Shown here one piece after another: positions 2,251-26,950 of a stretch of 64,000 bases of DNA (position 1 is the first letter of the stretch; every line of letters starts with the position of its first letter). The notes below the pieces were generated by a model. The model worked only from the letters and a program-made list of their open reading frames with translations. It searched no databases and was not told the DNA's origin. This DNA comes from Myxococcales bacterium (GTDB lineage Bacteria > Myxococcota_A > Polyangia > Fen-1088). The translations under genes were made by a program, and so were the position numbers. Location of the stretch: the NCBI GenBank assembly GCA_022184915.1, contig JAGTJU010000008.1:6760-70759 (forward strand). Reading direction: 5' to 3'.

Positions 2251-2725
2251 GGCGCCTGACCGCTGGCTGGCGCAGGTAGCCCGGCTCCGGGAGTGAGCTG
2301 ATCCACGAGCGCGGCGAGGTAAGGGCGGGCCGCTCGAGAGGGATTTGGGGGACCGGGTCTCGTACACCCGGCCCCCGTGCACCGATGGATCGCGCGCCGG
2401 GACGATCGCCTGGCGAGCCTCCGGCGTCCAGTTACTCTGCTCGCGCGAGCAGATGGACGAAGAGATCGTATTCGAGGACCCGCGCTACGCCTGGTGTCTT
2501 CAGGCGGTCTTGATCTGCCTGCCGGGCTTCCATGGCCAGCTCTACTGCTCGGCCTCGTGCTCCGTGAAGGGCAAGGTGCCTGCGTCGGCGGGCTCGTCGA
2601 CCGCTTCGTCGAGCGCTGCCACATCATCGACATCGCCGCCGACTCTTGGCGCCAGAAGCGCGCCGCCGACCCCGCCGTCGACGGGCGTCGCGAACTTCCT
2701 GTACGCTCCCGCGCGGAGGCGGCCG

Positions 2726-6830: not shown

Positions 6831-7101
6831 GTCACCTTTCCACGCTCTTACAACTGAGCGCCGGTGTCCACTGAATCGGGTCAACCCCGTACGGTCCTTT
6901 CCCCGAAGCGGAAGCGTACCAAGCATGGGTTGATGCCTGGGCGGGCAGCACGGATCCGCTGTTCTTTTCCGTTTGCAACCATCAAGGACAAGCTTTGGGT
7001 GCGCTGCCTATCTTCGCATCGTGCCGGAGATAGGGTGCATTGAAGTGGGACACCTGAACTTCTCACCGCGCTTGCAGCGAACGCCCGCGGCCACGGAAGC
7101 G

Positions 7102-8397: not shown

Positions 8398-8726
8398 AAC
8401 GGCTCGATCGCTTTCTTCGGGCGTATCCGCTTTGGCAAGCGTTCGAGATCCAGAAGCAACCCCTGGTCATCCCGCCGCGGGTCGATGATCTCGCTCAAGG
8501 CGTCGCCGAATCCCAGCACGAAGAGCGCCATCGCATAGACACCCAAGGAGACGGTGGGATCGCCTTTCTCGGCGCGACGATAGGTGCTTGTGGCGACCCC
8601 CATGCGCTCGGCCATCATCGCCGCGGTGAGGTGACGCTTCTTGCGAGCCACGCCAAGGTCGAAGCCAAACTTCGCAAGCCCCCGCCGAACCCGCGGCGGC
8701 AGTGTGTCAGTGACCCTGGAGCGCAT
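8394..8726 (-). CDS. hipB: HipB-like XRE-family HTH antitoxin
   Basis: 110 aa with an HTH (RKKRHLTAAMMAERMGVATSTYRRAEKG). It is overlap-coupled to hipA. Confidence 0.7.
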   Translation of the reverse strand: MRSRVTDTLPPRVRRGLAKFGFDLGVARKKRHLTAAMMAERMGVATSTYRRAEKGDPTVSLGVYAMALFVLGFGDALSEIIDPRRDDQGLLLDLERLPKRIRPKKAIEPL

Positions 8727-8754
8727 GATTACAACCTATATAGAGATTCCAGGA

Positions 8755-8880
8755 GGCCATTATAGCGCATATATGCTCAATTAGGTGCACAACAACAAGT
8801 CCGCCCTGCTGCGCGGACAATGTCGTTTATATATGAGCGAATTAGTTCAATTAATAGCTCATATATGAGCGTCTACTCTG
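8755..8880. promoter_or_regulatory. AT-rich promoter/operator region upstream of hipB with repeated palindromes
   Basis: A low-GC island in a 69 % GC background. It holds perfect palindromes GCATATATGC and GCTCATATATGAGC (the latter twice as CATATATGAGCG), as expected for HipB operator half-sites. Confidence 0.4.
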
Positions 8881-8960
8881 GTGGCCAGGAATGACCTTCG
8901 AGCCATGGGTTTTGCGCGCGGTGGAGTCAAAGAACACCACCTTCTGGTTGAACGATGTCA

Positions 8961-9200
8961 TCAGCGCGCGCGCCGGTAGTGCATGGCGAGCGCGCCGTTA
9001 CGGAGTGGCGTCGCCGAGACCAGGTCGAGCCGTCGCGTGCTGGGCAGCCCGCTTCCGTACAGGGTTGGGCCGTGGCCGGCGATCCTGGGGTGGACGAGAA
9101 ACTTGTACTCGTCGATCAAATCCAGCCGGTCCAGCTCGGTTGCGAGCTTGCCGCTACCGACGAGCACGCCGGCTGGGGTTGCGTCCTTGAGCTTCTGCAC
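8961..9200 (-). pseudogene. 3' fragment of a RibD-C/dihydrofolate-reductase-family gene
   Basis: The 79-aa C-terminal piece (LVGSGKLATELDRLDLIDEYKFLVHPRIAGHGPTLYGSG) resembles the RibD_C fold. The 5' part is replaced by an IS21 fragment. Confidence 0.45.
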
Positions 9201-9202
9201 GC

Positions 9203-9394
9203 CCGTGATCAGCTCACCAAGACAGTCCCGCCGTCTTCACGGCTGGTGGATGCGCTGCCCTCGTTGCGCGCGTGGCGTCCAGATCTCGGCACCGATCATC
9301 CACTTGCGCAACGCCTCCCGGGATACACGAACGCCATGTAGCTCAGCAGGTTTTTCGTGAGTTTTCACTTTGCGTCTACACGCCGCTGTTAGGC
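9203..9394 (-). mobile_element. internally deleted fragment of the type-2 IS21-family element (istA codons ~105-150 joined to its IRL)
   Basis: 9203-9360 is >90 % identical to 31130-31290 (istA of the 29852-31658 element). 9360-9394 (TTTTCACTTTGCGTCTACA) matches that element's terminus. Confidence 0.5.
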
Positions 9395-11196
9395 CCAAGT
9401 AGAAATGTCCCCATTCCTGCAAAGTAGGAATGTCCCCTTATGGGTATTGAGGGATGGTAGCACCTTGGGGGCGGCGGGTGCGGAGTCGGCCGATCAGCGG
9501 GCCCCCAATGGCCCGCAGGCCGGCGGACCCGTTGCCATTGAGTTGATGCTCATCGCCGCCCCCCGTCAGCGGCCCTCGCACTAGACTCGGCCGCCTTGGC
9601 TCGGGTTTGGATCTCCAATTGTTCGCGGTCGCGTTTGCGCTGCTTACTGGCGTCGTTGTATCGCTTTCGCCGTGCTTTCTGTTCGGCCTCGAACTTGGCG
9701 AAGAAGTTTGCCATTTCAGTCCCGCATTCAGGTGACCCTTGCGTGGCCGCAATGGCTGAAGCCAGTCGGTCAGTGTTGGGGACTGATGGGATCACATCAG
9801 CAGTACGATTGGTTTCTGCGCGCGACTCGCGTAAGTGCGTTTTTTGTCGAAGCGTAAGTTTTTTCGAGGCCAATCGACGCTGGTCGCGCTCCTCCTGGCC
9901 TGCTCGGATGGTTGAGAGCACGGCGCCAAGCCGCTTGTTCTCGACAATCGCACCGGGAGCCACCAGAGGTTGCTTGTCGAGCACGGTATAGGTCAGAAGA
10001 TGGTTGGCGCAGCGGATCTCGACCTGACCATCCGCCGCTTCGAAGAGGCGCACGCGACGTCCGGCGAGGCTGAGTGATTCTGGGCTGGGCACAATCAGGT
10101 ACGTACGCCGCTGATAATGCACGACCAGGTTGCGCGTCATCGTGCGCTCCTCTTGCCAGGTGAAAACCTCCGAAAGGACTTCGCCTGGTTGCACCGGGCG
10201 GTGCGCATCATGGGGGTTCATCGGCGCATGTGCAAAGCGGCGGTTGTAGTCGACCATGAACTCCGGTGCATACGCGTTTGCGTCCGCCATCGTGCTTATT
10301 TCACGCAGACGCATTTCCTTGACGAGCCGGTCCTGCAAGGTCTTGTTCATGCGCTCGACACGGCCTTTGGCCTGCGGCGTATTGGCGCAGATGATCTCGA
10401 TGTTGAGATCGCCCAGCGCGCGACCGAACTGTGTAACACCGGCGGAACGGCCGCTCGAGCCTTCCTGGTTCACGCGGAAGATGCTGTGTTTGTCGCTGTA
10501 AAACGCCACCGGTTTTCCGTAGTGACTTAGATACGACTGCGTGGCGGCAAAATAGTCGAAGGCCGATTCACTCACCACAAAACGCAGTTCCATCAACCGT
10601 CCCGTCGCATCGTCCACGTAGACCAATGCCGTGCAGCGATCAGCGCGCGCCTCGAACCACTCATGGTCGCAGCCATCAATTTGCACCAGCTCGCCAAGAC
10701 ATTGGCGGCGGTGCCGGGGCTGATGAACACGCCGTTTGCGCTCCCCACGGGTGAGCCACAGTCCGGCCTCAGCGAGCCACCCACGGACAGTCTCACGGCT
10801 CGCGTGTATGCCGTGGATCTCAACGAGCTTCTCGTGCGCCAGCTTCGGCCCGAAATCCGCGTAGCGCTCGCGTACGAGAGCCACAACCATTGCCTTCGTT
10901 TCAGCAGCGAGCTTGCGATTGCTCGGACGCCCTCGCAGCTGCGACGTAAGCCCAGCCAACCCTTGCGCTTTGAACTGCCGGCAAAGGCGCTTTACTTGGC
11001 GTACGCTGAGCCCCAGCAGGCCCGCGGCTTTGGACTGTGTCAGACGCTTCTCGAGTACCCGACGGATCATCTCGCCTCGATCGATCTCTCGGTTGGACAT
11101 GGTTACGAATCCCTTCGGCATGAGTCCACCCATGAGGACGCATAACGCGGCTCAAAGGGGACATTTCTACTTGGGCCGAAGGGGACATTTGAACTT
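9394..11196 (-). mobile_element. IS21-family element (type 1), istA only, no istB
   Basis: Ends are TGTTAGGCCCAAGTAGAAATGTCCCC and (rc) TGTAGCGCCCAAGTTCAAATGTCCCC, i.e. TGT… termini with GACATTT sub-repeats. Flanking CGCCGC direct repeat. Only ~150 bp remain between istA and the end, so an IstB ATPase gene cannot fit. Confidence 0.75.
9550..11133 (-). CDS. istA: IS21-family transposase IstA
   Basis: 527 aa with an N-terminal HTH and DDE core (…VQIDGCDHEWFE… DDATGRLMELRFV…). ~50 % identical to the second IstA at 30071-31606. Confidence 0.85.
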   Translation of the reverse strand: MGGLMPKGFVTMSNREIDRGEMIRRVLEKRLTQSKAAGLLGLSVRQVKRLCRQFKAQGLAGLTSQLRGRPSNRKLAAETKAMVVALVRERYADFGPKLAHEKLVEIHGIHASRETVRGWLAEAGLWLTRGERKRRVHQPRHRRQCLGELVQIDGCDHEWFEARADRCTALVYVDDATGRLMELRFVVSESAFDYFAATQSYLSHYGKPVAFYSDKHSIFRVNQEGSSGRSAGVTQFGRALGDLNIEIICANTPQAKGRVERMNKTLQDRLVKEMRLREISTMADANAYAPEFMVDYNRRFAHAPMNPHDAHRPVQPGEVLSEVFTWQEERTMTRNLVVHYQRRTYLIVPSPESLSLAGRRVRLFEAADGQVEIRCANHLLTYTVLDKQPLVAPGAIVENKRLGAVLSTIRAGQEERDQRRLASKKLTLRQKTHLRESRAETNRTADVIPSVPNTDRLASAIAATQGSPECGTEMANFFAKFEAEQKARRKRYNDASKQRKRDREQLEIQTRAKAAESSARAADGGRR

Positions 11197-11213
11197 GGGC
11201 GCTACACGCCGCT

Positions 11214-11278
11214 ACCCGATATATGAATGTTCTGTCAACTAACGTAAGCCGTCTCGCATCCTCAGCCTTGCTGCCGGG
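11214..11278 (-). repeat. repeat-family copy B
   Basis: The reverse complement reads CCCGGCAGCAAGGCTGAGGATGCGAGACGGCTTACGTTAGTTGACAGAACATTCATATATCGGGT. Confidence 0.7.
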
Positions 11279-11413
11279 ACTGCATCGCTGAGCTCCAAAA
11301 GGTGCTTGTCATGCAGAACATCCTGTCACCGCTCTTCCCGTGAATCTTCCGGCACCTTACATCCCCTGATTCGGCGGAGGTCTTGTGTTCCCGCAATCTC
11401 GGCCACCGGCGCC

Positions 11414-11818
11414 TCAACGCTCTTGCGAACAAGGAGATTCGACGGGGATCCGTAACGATCTCGCGGCTTCATCCAGGCGAACGTCATAAGTCACGAAGGC
11501 GCTGACATCAGACAGGTGCGTAAAGGCCGTCGCAAGGTGGATGGCGTCGAGGCTTCGCAGTACGTCCGGAGGCAGGTTCTCCGCGGTCTCAAGGATCCGA
11601 TCGTCGATTTTGAGTAGGGCAACGGCCGCTAGAACGCCGCGCGCACGATCAAGATGGTCCGGCGCTGCTCGCTTGACAGCTCGAACAAGCTCAACACGCG
11701 CAAGCTGCGACGAGAAGAACGTCTCGCCCGCGCGCAACCTGATCCAAGTTTGCAGCGCTACGGTTTCTGCCTCGCGCACCACGAGCTTCACCAGGGCAGA
11801 GGTGTCGAGATAGATCAC
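11414..11818 (-). CDS. vapC: PIN-domain toxin (VapC-like)
   Basis: 134 aa. MIYLDTSALV… and later D residues fit the PIN fold. ATGA-coupled to the upstream antitoxin. Confidence 0.7.
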   Translation of the reverse strand: MIYLDTSALVKLVVREAETVALQTWIRLRAGETFFSSQLARVELVRAVKRAAPDHLDRARGVLAAVALLKIDDRILETAENLPPDVLRSLDAIHLATAFTHLSDVSAFVTYDVRLDEAARSLRIPVESPCSQER

Positions 11819-12099
11819 GACCGCTCTGCCTGGCGCGCTTGATCGAGCACTTCAGAAAGCGACGGGCCAGTGCCCGAGGGCGGAGGAAGTGGTGTTAACA
11901 GAGCATCCGTAGAGCTGGTTGCAGCGATGGCCCGCCCCTCACTGACGAGCCGGTCGATGACCGATGCGTTGGAGAGAACGGGGACGATACGAGCGATGGG
12001 GCGGCCGTACTCTCGGACTTCAAGCGATTCACCAGCTTTGACCCGCTCAAGCACCTTGGCTGTTTGCTGGTTGAGTTCTGTAACCGAGACAATGGCCAT
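11815..12099 (-). CDS. Phd/YefM-family antitoxin
   Basis: 94 aa. MAIVSVTELNQQTAKVLERV… is the typical Phd/YefM N-terminus. Confidence 0.65.
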   Translation of the reverse strand: MAIVSVTELNQQTAKVLERVKAGESLEVREYGRPIARIVPVLSNASVIDRLVSEGRAIAATSSTDALLTPLPPPSGTGPSLSEVLDQARQAERS

Positions 12100-14153: not shown

Positions 14154-14687
14154 TTACGAAACCGAGGCTGCCTCCTCGCGCAGCATCGCAAAAAGATCCG
14201 TGACGCCCGGGTCACAGCCCTGTTGCGTGAGCAGGGTGGTCACCTGGCCGCGATGGTGAGTTTGGTGGTTGAAGAGATGGGAGACGGCCCACCACAGTGG
14301 CGCCTCCTGCCGCTGTCCAAGCCGCAGGTAGACGAGTGGCCCCGTCAACCTCTCCGGAGTGAGCCCGGCGACCCATGCGGAAAGGGCCTCGTCCGTACGC
14401 CGCCGCTCGAGGCGCAGCTCTTCGAAGCTGCCGTAGAGCTCCTGGTCCAAAGAGCGGATGCCCCCAGGGCCGATGCAGCCGTCGGGCAGGGTCTTACCCT
14501 CAAACCGGGCGAGCCACACTCTATCGGTCAGCAAGAGATGGTTGAGCGTGCCGTGAATCGAGCGGAAGAACGCGCCTGCGTCCTTCTTGCGAACCTCGTC
14601 ACTGAGCGTGGAGGCGCGCTCGAAGAGCTTGTCGTTCATCCAGCGGCTGTATCGCGCAAGGGAACTCAACCATTCGGGGCTCGCCAT
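14154..14687 (-). CDS. DinB/YfiT-like (DinB_2) family protein
   Basis: HLFNHQTHHRGQVTTLL is the DinB-family His-triad helix. Start set at MASPEWLSS. Confidence 0.7.
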   Translation of the reverse strand: MASPEWLSSLARYSRWMNDKLFERASTLSDEVRKKDAGAFFRSIHGTLNHLLLTDRVWLARFEGKTLPDGCIGPGGIRSLDQELYGSFEELRLERRRTDEALSAWVAGLTPERLTGPLVYLRLGQRQEAPLWWAVSHLFNHQTHHRGQVTTLLTQQGCDPGVTDLFAMLREEAASVS

Positions 14688-15198
14688 GGGCACGAGTATA
14701 CCCAGCCTCAGTCGCAAGCGCCGAGACGCTTGAGGCTCCACTTGGGATTGCGCCCGTCGAGACCCGCGACGTTGTCCGGATAGTTCGAGTCTTGCAGCCA
14801 GATCCCCAGTTTCCCACCGGGGTGCTCGTACGTGACCGGCGGCAGGAGCTTGCTCGCGGTTACGCAGTCCTCGAACTCGGCGTAGGCACCGCTGCCCGCA
14901 AAGACCCCGACGTTGCCCGGCAAGCCCACCTTCTTGTCCGCGGTGGAGTCACCCACCAGCCACCAGTTGCAGCAGCCACCAGGTGCGAAGGCGTTGCCCG
15001 TCCAGCCCTGCCCGAGGTTCTATTTGTTGCACCCGTCCACGTAGGACAGCATGGCCGCCGAATGAGCCGCCCCCATCGAGCTTCCCTCCGGGGTCGCCCT
15101 CGTCACCACAACCAGCAGCCCGGGACAGCCTCGGAGAACGCCGAGCCGCCACGCAACGCCGCTGTTCGGCTCTGAGGGCCGGCGCTCATGACGAAGAT

Positions 15199-15909
15199 TC
15201 ACGGGCGTGAGCGCCGCACGCACACCAGGTTGCATCCCGAACCCAAGGGCGGATGCACGGTGCAGGCCCAGCTGCCATTGGCACACGTGCAAGCATTACC
15301 GATCTCGTTGCCACACACGTCGCCCGCCGTGCAGGCCGTCCCCGGTTGGTCGGCAGCGCCGCAGGTTCGCGGGCAGTTCGGCAGGACTTCTTCGGGGCAA
15401 GGATTGGCGCATTGGCTTTGGATGCAGTCGACAGGGGGCGCAGGCGCGCAGTCGCACACGGGCCCGCCGCAGCTGGCCTCCTGATACCCCGTGGCAAGGT
15501 CGTCGAGGGTCGCTTGCGTCAGGCTCTTGTTGACCAGGGCATAGCACCCGCCCAACCCGATTCCGCAGTGGCCGTAGAGCACATGGCAGTCGGCGGCCGC
15601 CTGACAGCTCTTGGCCGCTGAGATGACGGCTGTGTAGCCGTCCCTGCGATCAGTGCAGCTCAGGGTCATCGACCCGTCGACAGGGGCGTCACCGCCCGAT
15701 GAGGATCCATCGACCGCGGCGTCGGCGCCGCAGGCGGGCTCGTACTTGCAGTTCCTATCGAACTGCTGCGTGATCTCATTCCACTCGCAGATTCGGGTGG
15801 TGCGAGTGCAGGCTTTTTCTTCGCTGTCGTCGCAGGCGGGTCCAAGAGCTGAAAGAAGGGCCAGGCCGAGCAACCAAGACGTAGAACGGAGGGTCGACGC
15901 TACGTACAT
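15199..15909 (-). CDS. secreted Cys-rich protein; gene appears disrupted downstream
   Basis: Signal peptide MYVASTLRSTSWLLGLALLSALGPAC with >25 Cys. Downstream frames (15020-15292, 14708-14956) continue with protein-like sequence across one frame change and one in-frame TAG (…YVDGCNK*NLGQGW…), so this is probably a decayed longer gene. Confidence 0.4.
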   Translation of the reverse strand: MYVASTLRSTSWLLGLALLSALGPACDDSEEKACTRTTRICEWNEITQQFDRNCKYEPACGADAAVDGSSSGGDAPVDGSMTLSCTDRRDGYTAVISAAKSCQAAADCHVLYGHCGIGLGGCYALVNKSLTQATLDDLATGYQEASCGGPVCDCAPAPPVDCIQSQCANPCPEEVLPNCPRTCGAADQPGTACTAGDVCGNEIGNACTCANGSWACTVHPPLGSGCNLVCVRRSRP

Positions 15910-16197: not shown

Positions 16198-17136
16198 TCA
16201 ACGGTGACTGCAAAGCGCGCTTCGAAGCCCGGGCTGTCGCCGAACATCCCCATGACCCCGCAACTCGACCAGTCCAAACGACCAGCGTCCACCTGGATGA
16301 AACCCGATCTCCACCTCGGCAACATCGCCTGGGTCCACGACTGTGCGAGGAAGCTTCGGAAACACGACTTGGCTCCAGTGAGTGGGAGGCGCATTCGGCG
16401 CCGTCGACAGCTCGACGCTGGGAGACAGCCTCGCCCAAAAGGTGCCCATGATGCCGTCCAGAACACCCGGCCTGTCAATTGGGCAGACAACCCTTCGAAG
16501 AAACCTGCCGCTGGTCGATTCGCCGAGCTCGAAGTGCATGAATGGAACGGTCGGTCCCAAGGCCCGGGCCTGTCGACAGGCTTCGACCACGTAGGGCGAT
16601 GCCTCGTTGACCAGCACCGCTTGCTGTAGGCGGCGAAGATCGAAACCAGCGACGTTGGTCCAGCACTGCCCATGCGTAGGCAGCAACCTGTGCCTCAGCC
16701 CTTCGTGCTCGATCGGGGTCAGCGCGAGCGCAAGTTCTTGCGGGATCATGCGGCCGCCAGGCTTGAGAAAACGGCGACGTGCATCGTGAAGGTACTCGAC
16801 GACGAACTCTTCGAGCGCAAACTGTCCGAATAGTTCCGAGACGACGACGTCAGCGCGTTCCGGCAGGTCGACGGCGAGGGAGTTTGCAGAGACCCACACG
16901 ATTCGATCGGCCAACTGGTTGTCTTGCGCGATGGCGCGCCCGAGCTCGCAGTAGGTGCCCTGCTCGATGGCGTAAACGCGTCGTGCCCCGGCCCGGGCAC
17001 AGAGCAGCGAGAGCAGTCCGAATCCGGCCCCCACGTCGACGACCACGTCGCCCTTTCTGACTTGCTCCCGGATCGCGCGGCCGTAAGCATCCGTCCGCTC
17101 GAGGTCGGCCACGTATCGTCCGAACTCACGCAGCAT
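16198..17136 (-). CDS. PRMT-like (protein arginine N-methyltransferase family) class-I SAM methyltransferase
   Basis: Start at internal Met MLREFGRY (TAATG junction with the kinase gene). Motif I VVDVGAGFGLLS, post-I VYAIEQG, double-E loop SELFGQFALEEF and THW-loop THWSQVVF are all in PRMT order. Confidence 0.65.
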   Translation of the reverse strand: MLREFGRYVADLERTDAYGRAIREQVRKGDVVVDVGAGFGLLSLLCARAGARRVYAIEQGTYCELGRAIAQDNQLADRIVWVSANSLAVDLPERADVVVSELFGQFALEEFVVEYLHDARRRFLKPGGRMIPQELALALTPIEHEGLRHRLLPTHGQCWTNVAGFDLRRLQQAVLVNEASPYVVEACRQARALGPTVPFMHFELGESTSGRFLRRVVCPIDRPGVLDGIMGTFWARLSPSVELSTAPNAPPTHWSQVVFPKLPRTVVDPGDVAEVEIGFHPGGRWSFGLVELRGHGDVRRQPGLRSALCSHR

Positions 17137-17756
17137 TACGTCCACTTGACAGCTCCTGGCGGTTTGACGAAGGCCTTGATCGCGCGTGCGTAACGGGACC
17201 AATCCTGGCGACGGGTATCTAGGTGCAAGAAGGGGAGGCGTGTCTTCTTTAGTCCGTCCCATCGGTGCGCCTGCGACCAGCGGACGGCTTCGATTGCAGC
17301 TTCTCGGGAGCCGTACCATGCGTCCATGTCTTGGGCCCACTCCAGCCTGTCGGGGCGCTCTATCGAACGTGTCTCCGCAAGCTCGGAAGGAAAGGTCAAC
17401 AGAACGAGAGAGGCGTCGAGCGCTTCGAGGCGCTCGTCGTATTGGTCGAGAAGTTCCCACCGAGGAAAGAGGGCGTAGGCCGTCAGGTGAAACCGCTCAA
17501 CCAAGAGCAGCCCCGCCGCCCCTTCGTCCCGGTGTCGTTCGATTCTGGCGAGGACCGCGTCGAGGGCCTCAAACCTGGGCCTCTCCCTCCAGGCGGGGTT
17601 GCGCACCTGGTTCATCAGGTCCCCAAGTGTGTCCTCCTCTGGGATGAGCGAGGGTCGATGGGAAAAGCAGCTCTCCATCGCGCGCAGAACCGACGTCTTT
17701 CCCGCCCCCGTGACGCCTTCCAGAATCAGAACGGAGCTCAATTGGGGGCACCCCAC
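17136..17756 (-). CDS. P-loop NTPase/kinase (nucleoside/nucleotide-kinase-like)
   Basis: Walker A ILEGVTGAGKTSVL near the N-terminus. 206 aa. Translationally coupled on both sides. Confidence 0.55.
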   Translation of the reverse strand: MGCPQLSSVLILEGVTGAGKTSVLRAMESCFSHRPSLIPEEDTLGDLMNQVRNPAWRERPRFEALDAVLARIERHRDEGAAGLLLVERFHLTAYALFPRWELLDQYDERLEALDASLVLLTFPSELAETRSIERPDRLEWAQDMDAWYGSREAAIEAVRWSQAHRWDGLKKTRLPFLHLDTRRQDWSRYARAIKAFVKPPGAVKWT

Positions 17757-18532
17757 AGCAGAACGTCGTTGAGACGCGGAACCGCTCGTTCCAGAACGGT
17801 GCGCTCGATCTCACTGAGCTCCGGATGCCAAAGATCCACCAGCATGAGCCCTCTCCAAACGTCGCTCGTGTTGACAGACTCGTGGTAGTAGCTGCTGTCG
17901 GCGGCCATGCATCGTCCATCGATCCAGGTGCGTCGTTGACCCCCGAAGCTGATCCAGGCTCCATCCGAGAACAGGGGCAAGTACAAAGTGACCACGAAAT
18001 TCACCTTGTCACTGTGTTCCTTGATCCGGGAGTGAGGCCCGAGGAAGGACATGAGCGCCTCGCGCGCGGGAGGAACCTCATCGAGGGTGCGCAGCGCAAC
18101 GGGTGCCTCCGCCGCTGTGGAGGGGACGCGGCGAAGGTGGCGTTGCAGGTAGTATCCCCTCCACTCACCCTCGAGCGGCGATTGCGGGTCTTTCGCCGGG
18201 CTGCTGCCAGATCGACCCGGATGTGAACGGAAGACCCACGGCTTGCTCAGAAGCCGCACCGCCTCTTCCCGAATGAGGGGGAACCGGCTCTCGAGACGTC
18301 TCGCGAGCGGAAAGGCATGCGCATCCCACCAAGGCCTCTCTGTGAGCCCTGGTACGTACAGGCGGGAATGCAAGGCGCGTTGAGGGCCTGGGTCGGGTGG
18401 GGTAGCCTCACCCCTGGCCACGGCGAAGAATACCTCGAGCCGCTCGAGTTCGCTCCCAGGATAGCGGGCGCACGACTCGGCCCAAAGTGCGTCGGCAGAG
18501 CGCTTCAATTCGCGGGCTTGATCTCTCATCAC
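17738..18532 (-). CDS. aspartyl/asparaginyl beta-hydroxylase-family Fe(II)/2OG oxygenase
   Basis: GYYLQRHL…HSDKVNFVVTLYLPL…GAWISFGGQRRTWIDGRCMAADSSYYHESVN…LVDLWHPEL follows the Asp_Arg_Hydrox (AspH/LpxO-like) cupin pattern. Confidence 0.7.
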   Translation of the reverse strand: MMRDQARELKRSADALWAESCARYPGSELERLEVFFAVARGEATPPDPGPQRALHSRLYVPGLTERPWWDAHAFPLARRLESRFPLIREEAVRLLSKPWVFRSHPGRSGSSPAKDPQSPLEGEWRGYYLQRHLRRVPSTAAEAPVALRTLDEVPPAREALMSFLGPHSRIKEHSDKVNFVVTLYLPLFSDGAWISFGGQRRTWIDGRCMAADSSYYHESVNTSDVWRGLMLVDLWHPELSEIERTVLERAVPRLNDVLLWGAPN

Positions 18533-18533
18533 A

Positions 18534-19382
18534 TCAAGCCTGTCGGATCAGGTGGTTCACCACGCCTGGACGCACGAGATTGGCATGGAAGGCTGCGTTT
18601 CGCACCTGGAGCCGCTCGCACGGGGGTACGAAGAGCGTGGTGTTGTAGGTAATCTTGTCGCCGCTGGAGGCCAACGCCGCCAGCGGCATCGAGATTCTGA
18701 CCTCCCGGTGAGGGGCACCCATTTCGCACTCGACCAGCTCGACCATGTGACCTGGAGGATAAAACCCCATGAGGTACTCGGCCAAAGGCCGCAGCCGTTC
18801 GGCATGGTTCGGCGTTACGCGGGTGATGAATCCCGACCCAAAGCAACCAACTTGGAAGATCAATAAAGGAACATTGCGCATTGGTTGCAGGGCGTAGGAG
18901 ACCATGCGGTTGGCGTCCAGAACCTGAAGGCCAGTGTTGGCGATGTCAAACGGCATCGTCGTGAGGAGCGTGTCGATGGCAGACAGCGCCGGAAGCACCC
19001 GAACCGAGACGCCGTACTGTGGGGCATGCTCGACGAGAAGATGTGTTGGTGAAACGTAGATGGACGGGTGACCCATCACGACGAGAACCACAGAGGCGTG
19101 GCGCAAACCCTCCCCGATCAGGAACGAAACGATCCGACCGTACACCTCGAGGTCGAGATCCCCTTCGCGATAGAAGTCGATCAAGCTTCGCGTGTTGGCG
19201 TTCAGACGCCGAAGGGCAGCGACAGCTTCCACGCCCGACACGAGGTGATAGACGACGTCAGCCTTCGCGACGACGTCAGCGGTCTCCAAAGTCGTATGGT
19301 GGCTGCCAAGCATCCCGGCGCCGCAAATGATGATCTCGTGCCGTTTGGACATGTTCTTGGTCTCAGTCTTCGGCTCAGGCAT
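18534..19382 (-). CDS. tetrapyrrole-methylase-family (TP_methylase fold) SAM methyltransferase
   Basis: HEIIICGAGMLGSHHTTLETADVVAKADVVYH (the GxGxG…T…A…ADVV opening) and the later VVMGHPSIY (GDP-loop equivalent). 282 aa. Confidence 0.6.
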   Translation of the reverse strand: MPEPKTETKNMSKRHEIIICGAGMLGSHHTTLETADVVAKADVVYHLVSGVEAVAALRRLNANTRSLIDFYREGDLDLEVYGRIVSFLIGEGLRHASVVLVVMGHPSIYVSPTHLLVEHAPQYGVSVRVLPALSAIDTLLTTMPFDIANTGLQVLDANRMVSYALQPMRNVPLLIFQVGCFGSGFITRVTPNHAERLRPLAEYLMGFYPPGHMVELVECEMGAPHREVRISMPLAALASSGDKITYNTTLFVPPCERLQVRNAAFHANLVRPGVVNHLIRQA

Positions 19383-21270
19383 TCACCACTTCCAGTCTTC
19401 GTTTCGAGACCGCTTTGGGCGCGATCTGCCGGTCCTCTGCTATCGCCCCCCAGGGCACCGCGAGCCCAAGGAGCTTGCCCTTCTCGACGAAAACGAGCTT
19501 GTTCTCCATCCAAGACGAGATCCACTCGTCCATGACAGCCGCTTCGATGCCGGGGAATCTGCGTCGCAGCTCGGCGATCGAGATGATCCTTTCACATTCC
19601 AAGTACACGTCCCGCTCAGGGCCCCTCAGCCAGTGAAAACGTGCATTCTTGCCGCGAAAGTCTCGGATCTTGAGATAGTCCCGTCCGTCTTGCATGGAAA
19701 GCAATAGGTTTCCCTCCACGTGAGGTCGCAGTGAGTCGTAGTGATTCCGCCACTCCCGCAGGGCCTCTTTCACCTTTCGCCAAAGGGGGCGAAGCGCGTC
19801 CAACTGGGCGCTGTCGAAAGACTTCTCGGTCAGGAAGAGCCGTTGGTTCAGGTCCGGCGGCAAGAGCATGCCATACATGTGATAGTTGCGGACGTTGCGG
19901 ATTCCGAACGTCTCTGGTGCCTTGTATGCTGGTGCCTGATACACCAGCGAGAAGTCGGCGATGTCAAGCGGTCTATAGCCTCGCGCGAACGCGATGTTCG
20001 TCAGTGTTTCGGCGATGTCTGCTTCGTCCATGCCCGGGTAGTCTACGATCAAGTTTGCCGTGTTCTTGATGCCGTATTGCTCACAGAACTTCATCGCCTG
20101 CAGATTCTGTAAGGTCGTCGTTCCCTTCACCATCTTCTCGAGAACAGACGTCGAGAGCGCTTCTATACCAAACTGCACCACACGGGCTCCAGCGCGGCTG
20201 AGTCGTCGAATCTGGTCGGGGTGTACAGACGCACGCGCTTCCATCCAGAAGTCGAGGCCGCCACCGATCGCGGTCAGTGCCTCGATGAACCCATCCGCTT
20301 CGCGGTGTCGAAGGATATTGTCGACGACGGTGAAATCGGGACACTCGTACTTTCTTGCGAGTTCGCGGATATCTTCGATCGACTGCTGGACGGGTTTCTC
20401 CCGATACCCATGCCATTGCAGGTTTAGATTGCAGAACGTGCAGCTCAGCATGGGGTCGACATGGCTTCGGTCCCACCAGCACCCCCTGCTGGTCTCTACC
20501 GGTATACGGATGCGGCCGATTTCCTCCTGGGAGTTGCCGCAGGAACGCAGAGTGCGAAAGTATCCGTCGTAGTTGGGTGGAGGTAGATCTGCCATGTTTG
20601 GGAGTTGGTCAACCTCGCCGAAGGCCGCCTCGGGTGAGTTGCGATGTACGACCGCCTTGACCTCCACAGTCTCGCCAGGGGCTGTCTTCTCCAAAGCCGA
20701 AGTCAGATTCAACAGGGGACTCTCGCCTTCACCGTTGACGACATAGTCCAAAAATGGGAACTCCTTTAGCAGAGTCTTCCCGATCAGGTTCGTGCAGCTT
20801 GGACCTCCCAGGACGATGTCCGTGGAGGGGGCTCTTCGCTTGACTTCGCGTGCGGCGAGCAGGCTTGGAATCATCTGGGCGAAAACCACGCTGAAACCCA
20901 CGAGCCGATATTGTGACCAATCAGTCCGGTCGAGCCTGTCGAGCAGGCTCGACCGTAGGGTCTCGATGACGCTTCCGAAGTCTAACTCACGGAAGGCTGG
21001 ATCGCTGTTTCGCGACGATTCGAGATAGTGGGCGATGGCGTTCGCGCGCTCGGGAAAGAAGATGTAGGCGAACAGGGCTTCGCCGACCCAGCTCACCGAG
21101 ATTCGCTTGGCCAAATGGATCCCGACAGCATCAGCCAACTCCAGGAACAGCTCATACGTGTCCACTTCGATGTCGGGACGGTGTCGCTCCATCCAGGCCT
21201 TGAGGGTTCCCAGTTGAATCGATGGGCTTAGCGGATCCTGCCAGGGCATCGAGATGAGGGCGATGCGCAT
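19375..21270 (-). CDS. B12-binding-domain radical SAM enzyme (class-B rSAM; RiPP-type C-methyltransferase-like) with non-canonical Cx12Cx2C cluster motif
   Basis: N-terminal Rossmann-like B12-binding region (MRIALISMP…). The rSAM core ETSRGCWWDRSHVDPMLSCTFCN is spaced Cx12CxxC instead of CxxxCxxC. 631 aa. Confidence 0.7.
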   Translation of the reverse strand: MRIALISMPWQDPLSPSIQLGTLKAWMERHRPDIEVDTYELFLELADAVGIHLAKRISVSWVGEALFAYIFFPERANAIAHYLESSRNSDPAFRELDFGSVIETLRSSLLDRLDRTDWSQYRLVGFSVVFAQMIPSLLAAREVKRRAPSTDIVLGGPSCTNLIGKTLLKEFPFLDYVVNGEGESPLLNLTSALEKTAPGETVEVKAVVHRNSPEAAFGEVDQLPNMADLPPPNYDGYFRTLRSCGNSQEEIGRIRIPVETSRGCWWDRSHVDPMLSCTFCNLNLQWHGYREKPVQQSIEDIRELARKYECPDFTVVDNILRHREADGFIEALTAIGGGLDFWMEARASVHPDQIRRLSRAGARVVQFGIEALSTSVLEKMVKGTTTLQNLQAMKFCEQYGIKNTANLIVDYPGMDEADIAETLTNIAFARGYRPLDIADFSLVYQAPAYKAPETFGIRNVRNYHMYGMLLPPDLNQRLFLTEKSFDSAQLDALRPLWRKVKEALREWRNHYDSLRPHVEGNLLLSMQDGRDYLKIRDFRGKNARFHWLRGPERDVYLECERIISIAELRRRFPGIEAAVMDEWISSWMENKLVFVEKGKLLGLAVPWGAIAEDRQIAPKAVSKRRLEVVNA

Positions 21271-21306: not shown

Positions 21307-22008
21307 TCAATGACGTCGGGCGGGAACCAACAACATCGCATCCTCGATGTTCGCCCGTAGCCAAAGATCGTCCCGTGCCAGGGGCATGGCAAGTAGGGAA
21401 TCTCGTGGCGCCGCGGCTCCCGCGCGGTAGACGTGAACCGTCCAGTCGGCCCCCCACGTGTGGATGAGGCGCGTCGCCAGGGCAAGGCGGCCACCCGGAG
21501 GCACGTAAGCTGTGTTCCACAGCGCCAAAGACACGCGATGGTCGAGCTGGTAGCCATGATCGAGAACGTCGCGAGCGTCTGCGATCAGCGTGGCGGGTCG
21601 AAGAAGATCGTTGCCCAAAAGGCCTGCGTAGTTGTCGAGCGCCGAGGGCGCGGCGACCACCTCGAAGGTCACGTTCTGCTGCGCCGCCACAGCCGCGGCC
21701 ACAGGAGTGAAGGGGTTGCCGAAGCTAGGATTACCCAACACGGCGACCGCCGCTCGCTCGTGGGCCCGTGCTGCAGAGACCGCGAGCTGAGCGGCTTTCG
21801 CCGTCACTCCAAAGGGGCCGGCGTCTCGGAAGACAGCCTGGTCGAGGTTGATGGCCGTTGGCGCCAATCGATGAAGCCTTTGTGACAGAACGGGCGGCAA
21901 ACCGAAGTGTCCCACCCACCTGCATTCCGACAGCGTTCGCGCCCCTTGCAGAGTCAGCTGATCTCCGGAGCCAAATCCAAGGCCGATCACGGAGAGCATC
22001 GAGATCAC
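21307..22008 (-). CDS. second tetrapyrrole-methylase-family SAM methyltransferase
   Basis: GTG start. MLSVIGLGFGSGDQLTLQGARTLSECRWV and AVLGNPSFGNPF (GDP-loop) fit the TP_methylase fold. 233 aa. Confidence 0.6.
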   Translation of the reverse strand: MISMLSVIGLGFGSGDQLTLQGARTLSECRWVGHFGLPPVLSQRLHRLAPTAINLDQAVFRDAGPFGVTAKAAQLAVSAARAHERAAVAVLGNPSFGNPFTPVAAAVAAQQNVTFEVVAAPSALDNYAGLLGNDLLRPATLIADARDVLDHGYQLDHRVSLALWNTAYVPPGGRLALATRLIHTWGADWTVHVYRAGAAAPRDSLLAMPLARDDLWLRANIEDAMLLVPARRH

Positions 22009-22009: not shown

Positions 22010-23005
22010 TCACTTCCACCTCACCCCGTCCAACTTGGCTCCGGTGAGGATGGCCCCATCGAGATTTGCACCACGGAGGTCCGAATTGCTCAGGTTGGCC
22101 TCCGTCAGGTCGGCGCCTGCCAGACTGGCGCCACGAAGATCCTGGTTCGAGAGGTCCGCACCTTTGAGGACAGCGCCGCGGAGCTGAATGACGGGGAAAC
22201 TGGGTGTCGCCATCGCTGCCTGGTAGGCCGCCGCAGCCGCGTAGAAGGACGGGTCGATGGCGGGTGCGCAGCGAACGGCGGCTGGGTTGTAGAAGGACGG
22301 GTCGATGGCGGGTGCGCAGCGAACGGCGGCTGGGTTGTAGAAGGACGGGTCGATGGCGGGTGCGCAGCGAACGGCGGCCGGGTTGTAGATGGACGGGTCG
22401 ATGGCGGGCGCGCAACGAACGGCGGCCGGGTTGTAGATGGACGGGTCGATGGCGGGTGCGCAACGAACGGCGGCCGGGTTGTAGAAGGACGGGTCGATGG
22501 CGGGCGCGCAACGAACGGCGGCCGGGTTGTAAATGGACGGGTCGATGGCGGGCGCGCAACGAACGGCGGCCGGGTTGTAAATGGACGGGTCGATGGCGGG
22601 TGCGCAACGGACGGCCGCGGGGTTGTAGGCGTCCTGGGGCGGGTATCTCGTAGGTTGCTCCAGAGCACCTAGGTGTGGATCTACTTTGAATTCCTTTTCC
22701 TGACTCATCACGTTCTCCTGAGCGGCAATGGGATTTGGGTAGGGATATTCGGCATGCAGAAGCTTGCCCGTCTGCGGATCACGGACGTATCGGGTTCGGG
22801 AGGTGGTCTCGACGATGCGACGGTGTGCGTCCAGCGCGCGACGAGCCACTTCCCAGTCGATCGCGCGCAATGAGGCCAGTTCGCGACCCGTGAGGCCAGC
22901 CCTGCCGGCCGCGTTTTCGGTCCTCGCCAAGCGCTCGAGGGTGTCGAGGTCGATGCGCTCCAACGTCAGCTCACTGAAGAGCCGCTGCAGATTCTCCAGG
23001 CTCAT
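22010..23005 (-). CDS. repeat protein / candidate multi-core RiPP precursor: ~100-aa N-terminal domain, 8 tandem 16-aa repeats [15 protein letters not shown](I/F), C-terminal pentapeptide-repeat domain
   Basis: 331-aa ORF. There is an internal SD-like AGGAGAACGTG-ATG (Met at ~22703) just before the repeats. The repeats occupy ~22241-22630. The C-terminus [45 protein letters not shown] forms A(D/N)LxG pentapeptide repeats. Confidence 0.6.
22241..22630 (-). repeat. tandem array of 8 near-identical 48-bp repeats (coding)
   Basis: GTAGAAGGACGGGTCGATGGCGGGTGCGCAGCGAACGGCGGCTGGGTT repeated 8 times with 0-3 substitutions. The three long alternative-frame ORFs over it (22005-22607, 22105-22668, 22204-22653) are artefacts of the repeat. 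Confidence 0.9.
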
Positions 23006-23020: not shown

Positions 23021-23917
23021 TCAGGCGGCGCGGGCGCGGGTCGCCGCCGGGAAGAGATCGTTTAGGATCTCGAGGTTGTGGAAAAGGACCCAGGGCTCTG
23101 CCCCGATTGTCTCGGTGTATACGGCGCGAAGGTTTGTACAACGTGGAATCACGTGTTGGAGGGCTTCGACGGTGATGGGGTTGAGGGGACCCGTGTAGTC
23201 GTCGACCCAGGTGAGGTGGGCGGGATCTCCGAACATGCCGCCGGCGGTGTTGATCTCTCCGACGTGACTCAAGGGGAATTCGTCGATGCGATCGAGGAGA
23301 GGGCGTCGATGAAGCAGGTTGTAGCTGAAGAAGTGGCCCACATCGAAGTTGAGCGTTGCGCCCGTGGCTTCCACGAACGAACGGAAGAACGTGGAAAGGT
23401 GCATCTCGTCCGGTCCGGGCATGTAGAAGTGCGGAACCTCTGGGAAGAGCGACACCGGTACTCGTTCGCTCACCTCGCGCATCCGTCGAATACAAACCGA
23501 GAGGCATTCCTCCGTGAGGAAGGGCTGCACGTAGTTGGGGTGGCCTTGCGGACGAGAGCGAGCGAAGTTGGTGACTATGACGTCTTCGGTGGCCCACTCT
23601 GGCCGCCAGATGTCGACGATCTCATGGATTCTGCTCCAGTTCGCCGTGATCGTCGTACCATCGAAGGGAAGCTCGAAGTCCCCGCTGGCGTGCCAAACGT
23701 ACTTCAATCCTGCGGGAAGTTGGGCCTTTAGCCGCTCCATGAAACCGCGGGAGTAGTTCTCGTAGGCGTAGACCGTCAGATACTGACAAAGGCCGCGCCG
23801 GTAACACTCGGTTACCACGTCAATGACCCCTGGCTCGCACAAATCGTTCGCCACACCCACGCCAAGCGCTCCCGCTTGGATCCGACTCGAATCTGACACT
23901 CCAAACACCTCCGGCAT
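23021..23917 (-). CDS. DUF692/MNIO-family enzyme, first gene of the tailoring operon
   Basis: 298 aa. GVGVANDL…VIDVVTECY… YVWHASGDF… TLNFDVGHFFSYNLL… LSHVGEINT align block-by-block with the DUF692 domains at 3454-4869 and 40012-40956 and with the MbnB pattern. Confidence 0.65.
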   Translation of the reverse strand: MPEVFGVSDSSRIQAGALGVGVANDLCEPGVIDVVTECYRRGLCQYLTVYAYENYSRGFMERLKAQLPAGLKYVWHASGDFELPFDGTTITANWSRIHEIVDIWRPEWATEDVIVTNFARSRPQGHPNYVQPFLTEECLSVCIRRMREVSERVPVSLFPEVPHFYMPGPDEMHLSTFFRSFVEATGATLNFDVGHFFSYNLLHRRPLLDRIDEFPLSHVGEINTAGGMFGDPAHLTWVDDYTGPLNPITVEALQHVIPRCTNLRAVYTETIGAEPWVLFHNLEILNDLFPAATRARAA

Positions 23918-24037
23918 CCAGTGACGATGCTATCCGCGCCGGATAATATCTGCGGCTTCGCGCCATGGCAACAGGAAACACGGGCGCGCTTTGCTTGTAG
24001 AACCTCTGGGTGACTCGAAACTAGGAGGGTCCCGAGG

Positions 24038-24349: not shown

Positions 24350-26950
24350 TCAGGGCAGCAGCCGACCCAGGTTGATGAGCTGGGTCTCGCCGCTGTTGTC
24401 GTCGACGCCATCGTTGTCGTTGACGATCCAGACATCGCCGGTGCGGGTCACCGCGCTGCCTTCGATCTTCTCGTAGACGGGGCCCGCCGGCCGCTTGAGA
24501 TCAGGCACCAGGTCGCGAACCAGCGTCTTGGTCACGGTGGCGCCGTCGGCCACGCCTGCCAGCGTCACCCGGTAGAGCCGCTTGATGACGGCGTCGGGAC
24601 CGCCCTGATTGTCGCGTTCCACCACCAGGAAGCTGCCGTCACCCAGGCTGCTGATATCGGAGAGGCCCACCCAGCCGCCGTTGGCCGAAGCCGGTGCCTC
24701 GAGCGGGTAGAAGGCGAAGGTCCAGGTGTCCGACACCACATCGTAGATGCCGATGCGCGCGTTGGCATCGCCCTGCCAGACCCGCTGGAAGGCCACGTAC
24801 ACCTTGCCAGCGTGTTCCGACACGCCTTCGTAGCCGAAGCGGATCTGCTTGGCGTTGATGGCATCCGGCAGCTTCACCACCTTCTCGATGACGCCATTGG
24901 CGTTCGTCTTGAACAGGAAGTTCAGGGTGTTGACCGGCCGCGCGGCTTCGCCGACCGTGCCCGCCCCTTCCGATGCGATCCAGAAGCCACCATCGCCCGC
25001 CACGGCAATGCCTTCGGGATCGATGTTCACCGTCTTGTCTGGGTTGATCATGGCCGCCAGATCCGCCTCATCGAAGACGTCTTTGCGGGTGGCGTCGTTC
25101 GCCGGAACGGTGGCATCAGCCAAATCCACGGCCGCCACCGCCTTGAACACGTCGTTCGTGTCGCGAATCGCAATTTCGCGAACGATGCGCGCAGGCCGGA
25201 AGCCCGTGTCGATGGCGAAGATGCGGTTCGCCTCGAAGGCGCTGTCCTCGATGGCGTAGAGCATGTTTCCGTGAATCGGATCGGCTGCCAGGCCCGACAT
25301 GGCTGCCCACGGGATGGGGTTTCCGTTCAACCGGTCGTTCGAGATCAGCGTGGGGTAGGCCGCGGGCGCGGTTTCGTAGGCGTAAATGTTGATGACCGAC
25401 CGCACGAGATCTTCGCGGCTATCCTCTTCGCTGGCCACGACCAGCAGGTTGCGCGATGGGATCGCCAGGGCGCCTTCGGGACCGATCCCGGCAGGCACCG
25501 CCTGCTTGAACACCGGCTTCCTCAGATCGGCCACGTCGTACACGAACACCAGGCTCGAACGCTCGGAGTTCACGAACAAGTAGCGATTGTTCCCGAACAC
25601 CGCGAATTCCACGTTCTCAGGTTCGTTGCCTTTGTTGTCCGATCGGCCATCAGGATAATGCCCGAGGCGCGAAGCCATCACGTCCATCTCGCGACCAGAG
25701 CTGTAGACGACGTTGCCGTTGGTATCGAAAATGGTGAAACCACGGCTGCCGCCAGCCAGGTCGCCCTCGTCCGCCGTCGCGAAGAGATCCTTCGAAAGCC
25801 AGGCCACACCATCGGGCTCTCGGGGCACGTCCATCTTCGTCTCTGTCAACGAGATGATGCCGTCGTCCCTCGTGTCCACGCCCGTGAGGTTCACCTTGCC
25901 GGCGCTGAAGCTGCGCACGATGCTGCCATCGCTCAGCTTCACCAACACGATGCCGTTGTTCTCCTGCAGGCTGACCACGGCGATGTTGTCGCTGTTGATG
26001 TCCACGAACTCGGGTTCGGGATCCGTGGGGGTTTCGATGCCAGCGAGACCGGTGAGCACCACGTCTCGGGTGGTCCAGGCACTGGGCATACCCTCCAGGC
26101 TCACCACCACCAGCTTGCCCGCGGGCAGCTGAGGGATGGCGCCATCGTTCAGGTCTTCGTCACGCTGGTTCTCGATCACGACCGCGGCGTACTTGCCATC
26201 GGGGCTCACGGCCACCGAGTCGGGCTGCCCCCCAAGATCGATCTTGCGCACGGACATCTTCGTCGTCACGTCGACGACGTCCAGCTCGCCCGATACGTTC
26301 ATGAAGCCGGCGCTCTTGTTTACTCCCACGAGGGCGTAGTTGCCCACCACGGCCACCGACGTGGGTTCCCCCGCCAGATCCAGGGTGCCCGCCGCTTTGG
26401 GAGCCCGCGGATCCGTGATGTCCACGAAGCCCACGACCTTGCGGGGGCTGTCCGAGTAGATGAGGGTCATGCCGTCGGCGGAGGCGGCCACGATTTCGGC
26501 GGCGGTCTGCGTATCGTCATCGCAGTTTGCGTCGATCTGGCTGCACACCGGCAGCACGGCGATGCGGTTGAAGTTCTTGCCGGTGTCGACGCTGGTGGGA
26601 GCGCAAAGGAAGGACGTGGAAACGATCTCGGTCGCCTCGAGCTGTCCGTTGCCGTTGGCATCGGCGCCGCTGTCGAAGCGGATGCCGCCGTCGAAGCAGT
26701 GTGCGTCCCCCGTGGCGAGAACGGTCTGCACGGTCAAACCGGAGTGTCCGCTGGCGCCCATGGCACCGGAAGGTCCAGCGGCGCCCGGCGCCCCCATGTC
26801 ACCCGGAGGTCCGGCTTGCCCCGCACCACCAACGGGTCCTGCGGGGCCCGCGGGACCGTTCATTCCGTCTTCTCCATCGGATCCCGAGCATCCCACCAGC
26901 GGGGACAGCAGCAGGGGCACCGCAAGCACGATCTGTTTCAGCCGAAGCAT
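24350..26950 (-). CDS. large lipoprotein with collagen-like G-x-y repeat segment and beta-propeller-like body (phytase-like/choice-of-anchor-type domains)
   Basis: Lipobox LVGCSGS, then GPAGPAGPVGGAGQAGPPGDMGAPGAAGPSGAMGASG, then ~780 aa rich in D/G/N/T beta-strand repeats. The antisense ORFs 24812-26980, 24849-25259 and others are artefacts. Confidence 0.55.
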   Translation of the reverse strand: MLRLKQIVLAVPLLLSPLVGCSGSDGEDGMNGPAGPAGPVGGAGQAGPPGDMGAPGAAGPSGAMGASGHSGLTVQTVLATGDAHCFDGGIRFDSGADANGNGQLEATEIVSTSFLCAPTSVDTGKNFNRIAVLPVCSQIDANCDDDTQTAAEIVAASADGMTLIYSDSPRKVVGFVDITDPRAPKAAGTLDLAGEPTSVAVVGNYALVGVNKSAGFMNVSGELDVVDVTTKMSVRKIDLGGQPDSVAVSPDGKYAAVVIENQRDEDLNDGAIPQLPAGKLVVVSLEGMPSAWTTRDVVLTGLAGIETPTDPEPEFVDINSDNIAVVSLQENNGIVLVKLSDGSIVRSFSAGKVNLTGVDTRDDGIISLTETKMDVPREPDGVAWLSKDLFATADEGDLAGGSRGFTIFDTNGNVVYSSGREMDVMASRLGHYPDGRSDNKGNEPENVEFAVFGNNRYLFVNSERSSLVFVYDVADLRKPVFKQAVPAGIGPEGALAIPSRNLLVVASEEDSREDLVRSVINIYAYETAPAAYPTLISNDRLNGNPIPWAAMSGLAADPIHGNMLYAIEDSAFEANRIFAIDTGFRPARIVREIAIRDTNDVFKAVAAVDLADATVPANDATRKDVFDEADLAAMINPDKTVNIDPEGIAVAGDGGFWIASEGAGTVGEAARPVNTLNFLFKTNANGVIEKVVKLPDAINAKQIRFGYEGVSEHAGKVYVAFQRVWQGDANARIGIYDVVSDTWTFAFYPLEAPASANGGWVGLSDISSLGDGSFLVVERDNQGGPDAVIKRLYRVTLAGVADGATVTKTLVRDLVPDLKRPAGPVYEKIEGSAVTRTGDVWIVNDNDGVDDNSGETQLINLGRLLP

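Follow-up and report, generated by a model that had tools for sequence, protein, structure and literature searches.

Among the hallmarks of signalling and chromatin biology in eukaryotes is methylation of the guanidino group of arginine side chains. Bacterial protein arginine methyltransferases (PRMTs) in peptide operons were reportedly predicted on comparative-genomic grounds by Aravind, Abhiman and Iyer in 2011. In the accessible part of one account, bacterial PRMT homologues are "peptide methylases" of secondary-metabolite operons that also encode peptide dioxygenases (PMC3417536). Here we describe a PRMT-like gene at 16198..17145 on the minus strand of a 64,000-nucleotide stretch of DNA from a Myxococcales bacterium (GenBank assembly GCA_022184915.1, contig JAGTJU010000008.1, positions 6,760 to 70,759), called the window below. 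Its product is an S-adenosylmethionine (SAM)-dependent methyltransferase that combines a Rossmann domain with a PRMT beta-barrel and has an arm-like insertion. It is encoded by the last gene in a series of eight on the same strand that overlap or are separated by gaps of 36 nt or less, and that produce a peptide synthesized by ribosomes and then modified post-translationally (RiPP). The protein has the PRMT fold with intact SAM- and guanidinium-binding residues, its gene is translationally coupled to the preceding one, and the synteny of the RiPP operon is conserved. We consider it probable, with some reserve, that the enzyme carries out SAM-dependent omega-N-methylation of the arginine in the peptide core.

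That bacterial PRMTs occur in operons for peptide tailoring is, as a general idea, already known, which is a caveat on the novelty of this locus. Going by the accessible text of PMC3417536, the operons described there resemble the one in the window in combining a PRMT homologue with dioxygenases (here an Asp/Asn beta-hydroxylase, with PhyH proteins in three related loci). They differ in context, which is that of nonribosomal peptide synthetases (NRPS) and amine oxidases, whereas the operon in the window has a ribosomal multi-core precursor together with MNIO (DUF692), borosin-type and B12-binding radical SAM enzymes. In the streptozotocin pathway, SznE/StzE makes N-omega-methylarginine from free L-Arg (PMC12637814, PMC11705231). 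Compared by reaction, SznE/StzE is likewise bacterial and associated with a natural product, but the presumed substrate in the window is a peptide. The split borosins (SonM/SonA; RceM/RceA), among which those of Type V (RceM/RceA) have a multi-core precursor (10.1101/2021.12.24.474128), also pair a SonM/OphMA homologue with a multi-core precursor. An MNIO is present as in the RiPP clusters of methanobactin, the bufferins and aminopyruvatide (ApyH), and no MNIO partner protein is evident in the operon in the window.

PRMTs are absent, as RiPP tailoring enzymes, from a 2024 review of RiPP methyltransferases (PMC11285071). In the searchable literature, which has most subscription journals outside it, we found no PRMT in a RiPP cluster or omega-N-methylarginine in a RiPP, no MNIO and borosin-type enzyme in one cluster, no pentapeptide-repeat domain in the precursor of an MNIO, and no bacterial PRMT with biochemically characterised activity on a peptide. 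We regard it as an evenly balanced proposition that this is the first PRMT-type enzyme in RiPP biosynthesis, introducing omega-N-methylarginine up to eight times per multi-core precursor, in an undescribed hybrid RiPP family that unites an MNIO, a borosin-type N-methyltransferase, a B12-dependent radical SAM enzyme and an Asp hydroxylase. The same balance applies to the view of the protein as a minimal PRMT without the alpha-X lid and as an example of the bacterial "peptide methylase" stock proposed as ancestral to eukaryotic PRMTs, those that act on histones included.

The terminal methyltransferase and the PRMT family

Translation of 16198-17136 on the minus strand from the ATG at 17136 gives a protein of 312 amino acids. 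A GTG at 17145 lies in frame, with AGGAG located 7 nt upstream, and initiation at this codon would produce a 315-amino acid protein with the N-terminus MDVMLREF. Since this N-terminus was found in 15 of 20 homologues and the GTG is preceded by AGGAG, GTG 17145 is probably the true start, resulting in a 10-nt overlap with the upstream P-loop gene. The TAA stop codon of the latter (17138-17136) has its A in common with ATG 17136, forming the sequence TAATG.

The four PRMT signatures claimed in the preliminary description of this DNA were all located, in the expected order and positions on the minus strand. They are motif I (VVDVGAGFGLLS, amino acids 32-43, nt 17008-17043), the post-I motif (VYAIEQG, amino acids 54-60, nt 16957-16977), the double-E loop (SELFGQFALEEF, amino acids 100-111, nt 16804-16839) and the THW loop (THWSQVVF, amino acids 252-259, nt 16360-16383). 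Motif III (LKPGGRMIP) is also present. The occurrence of the four motifs in this order is far beyond chance expectation. The two acidic residues attributed to the double-E loop correspond to E101 and E110; the phmmer alignment pairs them with the two glutamates of the PRMT6 double-E loop, and the spacing of 8 residues is the same. In this alignment THW falls on THW, and the SAM-binding motifs align to those of PRMT6. The motif CWTNVAGFDL resembles the sequence WENVYGFDM of PRMT1.

Comparisons at the levels of sequence, profile and structure all placed the protein with the PRMTs. The Pfam model PRMT_C, which describes the PRMT-specific beta-barrel, matched it with 33.5 bits (cut-off 27) and also matched all 20 members of the clade formed by its close homologues; generic Rossmann methyltransferase models matched too. 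All 60 PDB matches listed by phmmer are PRMTs, including PRMT6 (3.4e-27), CARM1 (7e-27), PRMT8 (2e-23) and PRMT1 (1.4e-21). A profile of the 20-member clade matched PRMT3 in PDB with 7e-42 over profile positions 12-286, and its THW aligned to that of PRMT3. The AlphaFold2 model (60 homologues; pLDDT 93.4, pTM 0.89) has a helix-loop-helix (helices 145-155 and 168-179) where the PRMT dimerisation arm lies. Type I PRMTs (CARM1, PRMT3, PRMT2 and PRMT6) account for all of the top 50 Foldseek matches of this model in PDB, with TM-scores of 0.77-0.84 over about 300 columns and E values of about 1e-28. The preliminary description had named, as the outcome that would speak against a PRMT, a generic small-molecule class I methyltransferase with no conserved double-E loop. 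No small-molecule class I enzyme was found among the 60 PDB sequence matches listed or the top 50 fold matches. Assignments as UbiE-like protein or cyclopropane-fatty-acid (CFA) synthase were rejected, the scores being far under the cut-offs (UbiE, 16.6 bits; CfaB, 15.4 bits).

An NCBI entry with the identical protein, from a Myxococcales metagenome-assembled genome (MAG), carries the label "50S ribosomal protein L11 methyltransferase". The NCBIfam prmA models gave 21-26 bits against cut-offs of 183-269 (TIGR00406, 26.2 against 183; NF001790, 22.1 against 269), Pfam PrmA gave 28.1 bits, and only the generic Rossmann segment aligns. The public label is wrong for this protein, and a misleading annotation is hereby corrected. 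The most fitting description of the protein is that of a minimal PRMT family member from a bacterium. Like the eukaryotic type I PRMTs (PRMT6, CARM1/PRMT4, PRMT3, PRMT1, PRMT2 and PRMT8), with which it shares 24-28% identity over about 300 aligned positions, it consists of a Rossmann SAM domain and a beta-barrel with a putative arm inserted in it, and it has motif I, the post-I Glu, motif III, the THW loop and a double-E loop that is spaced identically. Unlike them, it is bacterial, only 312-315 amino acids long, lacks the YFxxY alpha-X helix and any accessory domain, and has a Tyr at the Met48 position. Its gene belongs to a RiPP operon, and in place of RGG or a histone tail a repeated RC motif is presumed to be the substrate.

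In PRMTs, binding of the guanidinium is the specialised role of the double-E glutamates and the THW residues, and the beta-barrel and arm form a peptide-binding groove. Residues R14, D34, G36, G38, G40, E58, E101, E109, H253 and W254 are invariant in the 20-member clade, position 110 is Glu in 19 members and Asp in one, and T252 is conserved in 19 of the 20. In several other bacterial PRMT-like groups the corresponding residues are replaced (D-Q...E-A; RR or SSW for THW). That the double-E and THW residues were kept in this clade while other bacterial groups lost them points to selection for guanidinium binding.

The clade is small. Its members have about 300 amino acids and are 46-61% identical to the protein in the window. 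Among 5.8 billion proteins they make up 20 clusters when grouped at 90% identity, and among 1.84 billion grouped at 50% they have about four representatives. Below the clade, the scores fall from 306 to 257 bits into a broad PRMT superfamily, for which a library that mixes bacteria and eukaryotes has 2,965 representatives at E<=1e-30, and many of the named matches are proteins from bacterial MAGs. The statement that PRMT-fold enzymes are rare in bacteria was therefore too strong; rarity applies to this particular clade and not to bacterial PRMT-like proteins. Nor can the RiPP link be extended to all of the latter, because three more distant proteins with canonical motifs (P0022, P0030 and P0042) are encoded in contexts other than RiPP clusters. 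A scan of GTDB species representatives with the clade patterns returned one true locus, identical to the related locus L001, and one weak unrelated match, and a metagenome scan with the radical SAM enzyme alignment found no close relatives of the cluster (best identity, 44%).

An unrelated metagenomic contig that came up in the latter scan, L069 (Ga0209254_10014404), has a PRMT-like gene with canonical motifs at 222-1235 (SEWLGAIGVDEN, THW; PRMT_C 40.7 bits). It is located directly upstream of a TIGR03975-like B12-dependent radical SAM gene (1718-3568), with a 117-amino acid Arg-rich open reading frame (ORF) between them, and may represent a second, independent association of a PRMT with a RiPP.

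The RiPP operon and its relatives

All genes of the operon are on the minus strand. The first (23021..23917) encodes a divergent MNIO that matches PF05114 with 34.1 bits (cut-off 25) and has weak matches to ApyH and BufB. Just upstream of its start, at 23943..23971 on the same strand, there is a match to a sigma-70-like promoter (TTGCCA-17-TATTAT), a consensus match only and weak alone, one such match being observed in the region where 1.4 are expected by chance. The MNIO gene is followed by the precursor gene (22010..23005) and by a gene for a divergent TP_methylase-like protein (21307..22008; PF00590, 51.1 bits). Next are genes for a B12-binding radical SAM RiPP C-methyltransferase (19375..21270; TIGR03975, 375.5 bits against a cut-off of 281.85) and for a homologue of the borosin-type peptide backbone alpha-N-methyltransferases with the TP_methylase fold of PF00590 (18534..19382). 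A protein of the iron/2-oxoglutarate-dependent Asp/Asn beta-hydroxylase family (17738..18532; PF05118, 88.4 bits) and the P-loop protein (17136..17756) precede the PRMT-like protein. The product of 18534..19382 matched, among PDB sequences, SonM (1.8e-18), dbOphMA (7e-17) and OphMA (2e-15). The multi-core precursor, the TIGR03975 and PF05114 matches, the SonM-like N-methyltransferase and the synteny found in loci L001 and L003-L008 identify the operon as a genuine RiPP cluster.

Of the two genes with the TP_methylase fold, only 18534-19382 resembles SonM/OphMA by sequence. The other one (21307-22008) had no PDB sequence match, yet it is conserved in all related loci, and its product may be a non-catalytic heterodimer partner of the alpha-N-methyltransferase.

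The precursor has 331 amino acids, with a leader domain of about 125 residues, eight cores and a C-terminal pentapeptide-repeat domain. As the preliminary description had it, each repeat of the substrate contains one Arg: there are exactly eight RCAPAIDP units at a 16-amino acid spacing, encoded by a 48-bp tandem array (8.1 copies, 22241-22628, 95% matches), and the 16-residue unit ends in Ile or Phe. Every full repeat of all precursors recovered has RCAPA[IV]DP with one Arg, and in a degenerate unit of L005 the Cys was lost and the Arg was kept (VRTAPAIDP). The arginines of the leader, by contrast, vary between precursors, as illustrated by the junctions PTRYPPQ, PVQYPQQ and PISYPPQ. The N-terminal domain is conserved, and the pentapeptide-repeat (beta-helix) tail, which ends in GV[RK]WK, is common to all recovered precursors. 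Since the operon encodes no separate MNIO partner or RiPP recognition element (RRE) protein, the recognition functions may be built into the precursor.

The gene order that ends in the PRMT-like gene recurs in at least five independent loci (L001, L003, L004, L005 and L008) with GC contents of 50-69%. In this count, L009, which is the same contig as L001, and L002, a Logan copy with identical layout, were not considered separately. Every clade member with a readable context is the last gene in this type of cluster. L008, which most resembles a cluster of a betaproteobacterium (Janthinobacterium), has its PRMT-like gene at 7017-7892. A convergent gene for a PhyH-family dioxygenase overlaps the 3' end of the PRMT-like gene in L001 (6207-6860), L004 (6242-6940) and L005 (5744-6514), on the minus strand in all three. 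The window has no PhyH gene at this place and has instead a Cys-rich, apparently secreted protein of 236 amino acids (15199-15909) followed by a DinB-family protein (14154-14741). In L003, with a GC content of 50%, the first TP_methylase-like gene (5179-5864) and the Asp hydroxylase gene (8624-9411) were each called as two, which could be due to frameshifts, assembly errors or decay of the cluster.

The P-loop protein, the stop codon of which overlaps the start of the PRMT-like gene, has a nucleoside monophosphate (NMP) kinase fold and the Walker A motif GVTGAGKT. It reached 22.0 bits, right at the cut-off, with the Pfam chloramphenicol phosphotransferase (CPT) model, and its AlphaFold2 model (pLDDT 94) matched thymidylate, adenylate and shikimate kinases as well as CPT in Foldseek (TM-scores of 0.5-0.62). 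The coupling to a kinase through TAATG put forward in the preliminary description is partly borne out. The junction is real; however, the likely start is GTG 17145, and the designation "kinase" is justified only at the level of the fold. The P-loop gene is absent from L005, where the PRMT-like gene is present, and from L007, and it is present in L006, which has no PRMT-like gene. These loci, together with stand-alone homologues, ruled out the P-loop protein as an obligate partner of the PRMT. The P-loop family comprises about 44 clusters, and stand-alone genes with 52-53% identity were found outside any such operon in myxobacterial genomes, one of them a MAG of Hyalangium and the other a metagenomic contig of 320 kb (L094 and L095).

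The proposed reaction and its alternatives

We propose that the gene encodes an active, SAM-dependent methyltransferase of the PRMT family, which a hybrid RiPP pathway took up as an optional enzyme for late tailoring. E101 and E110, together with His253 of the THW loop, would bind the guanidinium group of the one Arg that every RCAPA[IV]DP core invariably contains, and one or two methyl groups would be transferred from SAM to an omega nitrogen of this residue. Repeated along the precursor, the reaction would generate up to eight N-omega-methyl- or dimethyl-arginines, alongside Cys chemistry by the MNIO, borosin-type backbone N-methylation, C-methylation by the B12-dependent radical SAM enzyme and beta-hydroxylation of Asp/Asn. 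Because the protein is placed with the PRMTs, its double-E and THW residues are conserved, the operon is of the RiPP type and the core Arg is invariant, methylation of this Arg is the most economical prediction. If true, it would add a new post-translational modification and a compact 312-amino acid enzyme for RiPP engineering, as well as a tractable bacterial PRMT with a genetically encoded 16-residue substrate, with which the proposed origin of eukaryotic PRMTs from bacterial peptide-tailoring methylases could be tested. It would also draw attention to an uncharacterised hybrid RiPP family.

Several observations weigh against this proposal. The PRMT slot is occupied by a Methyltransf_24 gene with a weak TylF match in two related loci, L006 (Janthinobacterium fluminis, JAQQXR010000001; 15692-16279) and L007 (metagenomic; 7218-7793). 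The products have 191-195 amino acids, and no PRMT remnant was found in either locus. Nonetheless, both loci keep the same core as the window (RCAPAIDP, here in a unit ending in Ile or Met). When we asked if the core Arg vanishes where the PRMT is missing, the residue was found to stay in L006 and L007, so that the comparison did not discriminate. Therefore, conservation of the Arg is not PRMT-specific evidence, and the argument from an Arg in every repeat, on which the preliminary description had partly based its prediction, is weakened. The invariant Arg is kept for reasons beyond a role as PRMT substrate, which is no contradiction where a PRMT is present. Arg is also a possible target of the B12-dependent radical SAM enzyme, since Mmp10 reportedly modifies an Arg of methyl-coenzyme M reductase (PMC8828468).

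The missing N-terminal helix is another point of this kind. No alpha-X helix with YFxxY was found in any of the 20 clade members, all of which begin at MD[IV]MLREF. This helix closes over SAM in PRMT1 and CARM1. The protein in the window begins 7-10 residues before the position aligned with Met60 of PRMT6 (Met48 of PRMT1), which is occupied by Tyr8, a residue at least 90% conserved in the clade. The in-frame extension upstream of the ORF overlaps the P-loop gene and contains no YFxxY.

L006 and L008 are 81-85% identical in the MNIO, precursor, radical SAM enzyme, N-methyltransferase and hydroxylase, and they differ in the terminal methyltransferase. The terminal methyltransferase is, as far as these sequences indicate, a recently exchanged and optional tailoring module, and the difference of L006 and L007 from L008 suggests that the modules were swapped recently. 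With a sister cluster and a different terminal methyltransferase, the cultured strain J. fluminis offers a natural comparison and could be an entry point for experiments.

The exchange also bears on the possibility that the protein is an active PRMT-fold enzyme with an acceptor other than the core Arg, such as a nucleophile generated by the MNIO, the hydroxylase or the kinase, an exposed N-terminus, or an Arg of the leader or of a partner protein. At an identical core, a TylF-like and probably O-type methyltransferase can take the place of the PRMT, and a guanidinium would not be the target if both enzymes had the same function. Furthermore, without the YFxxY helix and with a Tyr at the Met48 position, the active-site lid is unlike that of characterised PRMTs. 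However, the double-E glutamates and the His and Trp of THW are invariant or nearly so in the clade and replaced in other bacterial branches, and the leader arginines are not conserved between precursors. To our knowledge, there is no PRMT-fold enzyme with a non-guanidino acceptor, which also counts against this explanation, and we consider it unlikely.

A supply of building blocks, in which free L-arginine or a small guanidine would be the substrate, has a precedent in SznE/StzE, a bacterial guanidino methyltransferase that acts on free Arg (PMC11705231, PMC12637814). Pfam and NCBIfam searches of the operon, however, found no NRPS, ligase or other enzyme that uses free methylarginine. The product is ribosomal, with an Arg encoded in every repeat, and the full PRMT beta-barrel and arm appear to be retained in the model. 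We find this alternative highly improbable.

Hardly any credence is given to an inactive scaffold or recognition subunit, or to a general protein methyltransferase such as PrmA that is a neighbour by chance, for which the NCBI name, the Pfam PrmA score and the distant PRMT-like proteins outside RiPP clusters could be invoked, since the PrmA match covers the Rossmann part only, all SAM-binding and catalytic residues are conserved, and the gene keeps its terminal place in the five independent loci and overlaps its neighbour through their stop and start codons. Methylation of the core Arg remains the reading that we favour.

Surroundings of the operon

A second, canonical MNIO is encoded on the minus strand at 3454-4869, 18 kb from the operon. 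It has 471 amino acids, including a C-terminal extension of about 200 residues, and matches PF05114 with 259 bits. Its gene adjoins one for a protein with a nucleotidyltransferase domain (2726-3631) and may be part of a separate RiPP locus. Between the two MNIO loci, at 7102-12099, there are mobile and addiction elements, namely a HipA toxin kinase (7102-8397), a transposase-like ORF with a helix-turn-helix and an integrase core (9550-11133) and the two genes of a PIN/Phd toxin-antitoxin system (11414-12099). The gene at 24350-26950 on the minus strand, immediately upstream of the operon, encodes a secreted protein of 866 amino acids that comprises DUF7151, a collagen-like repeat and an esterase domain of phytase-like type, and is probably unrelated to the cluster.

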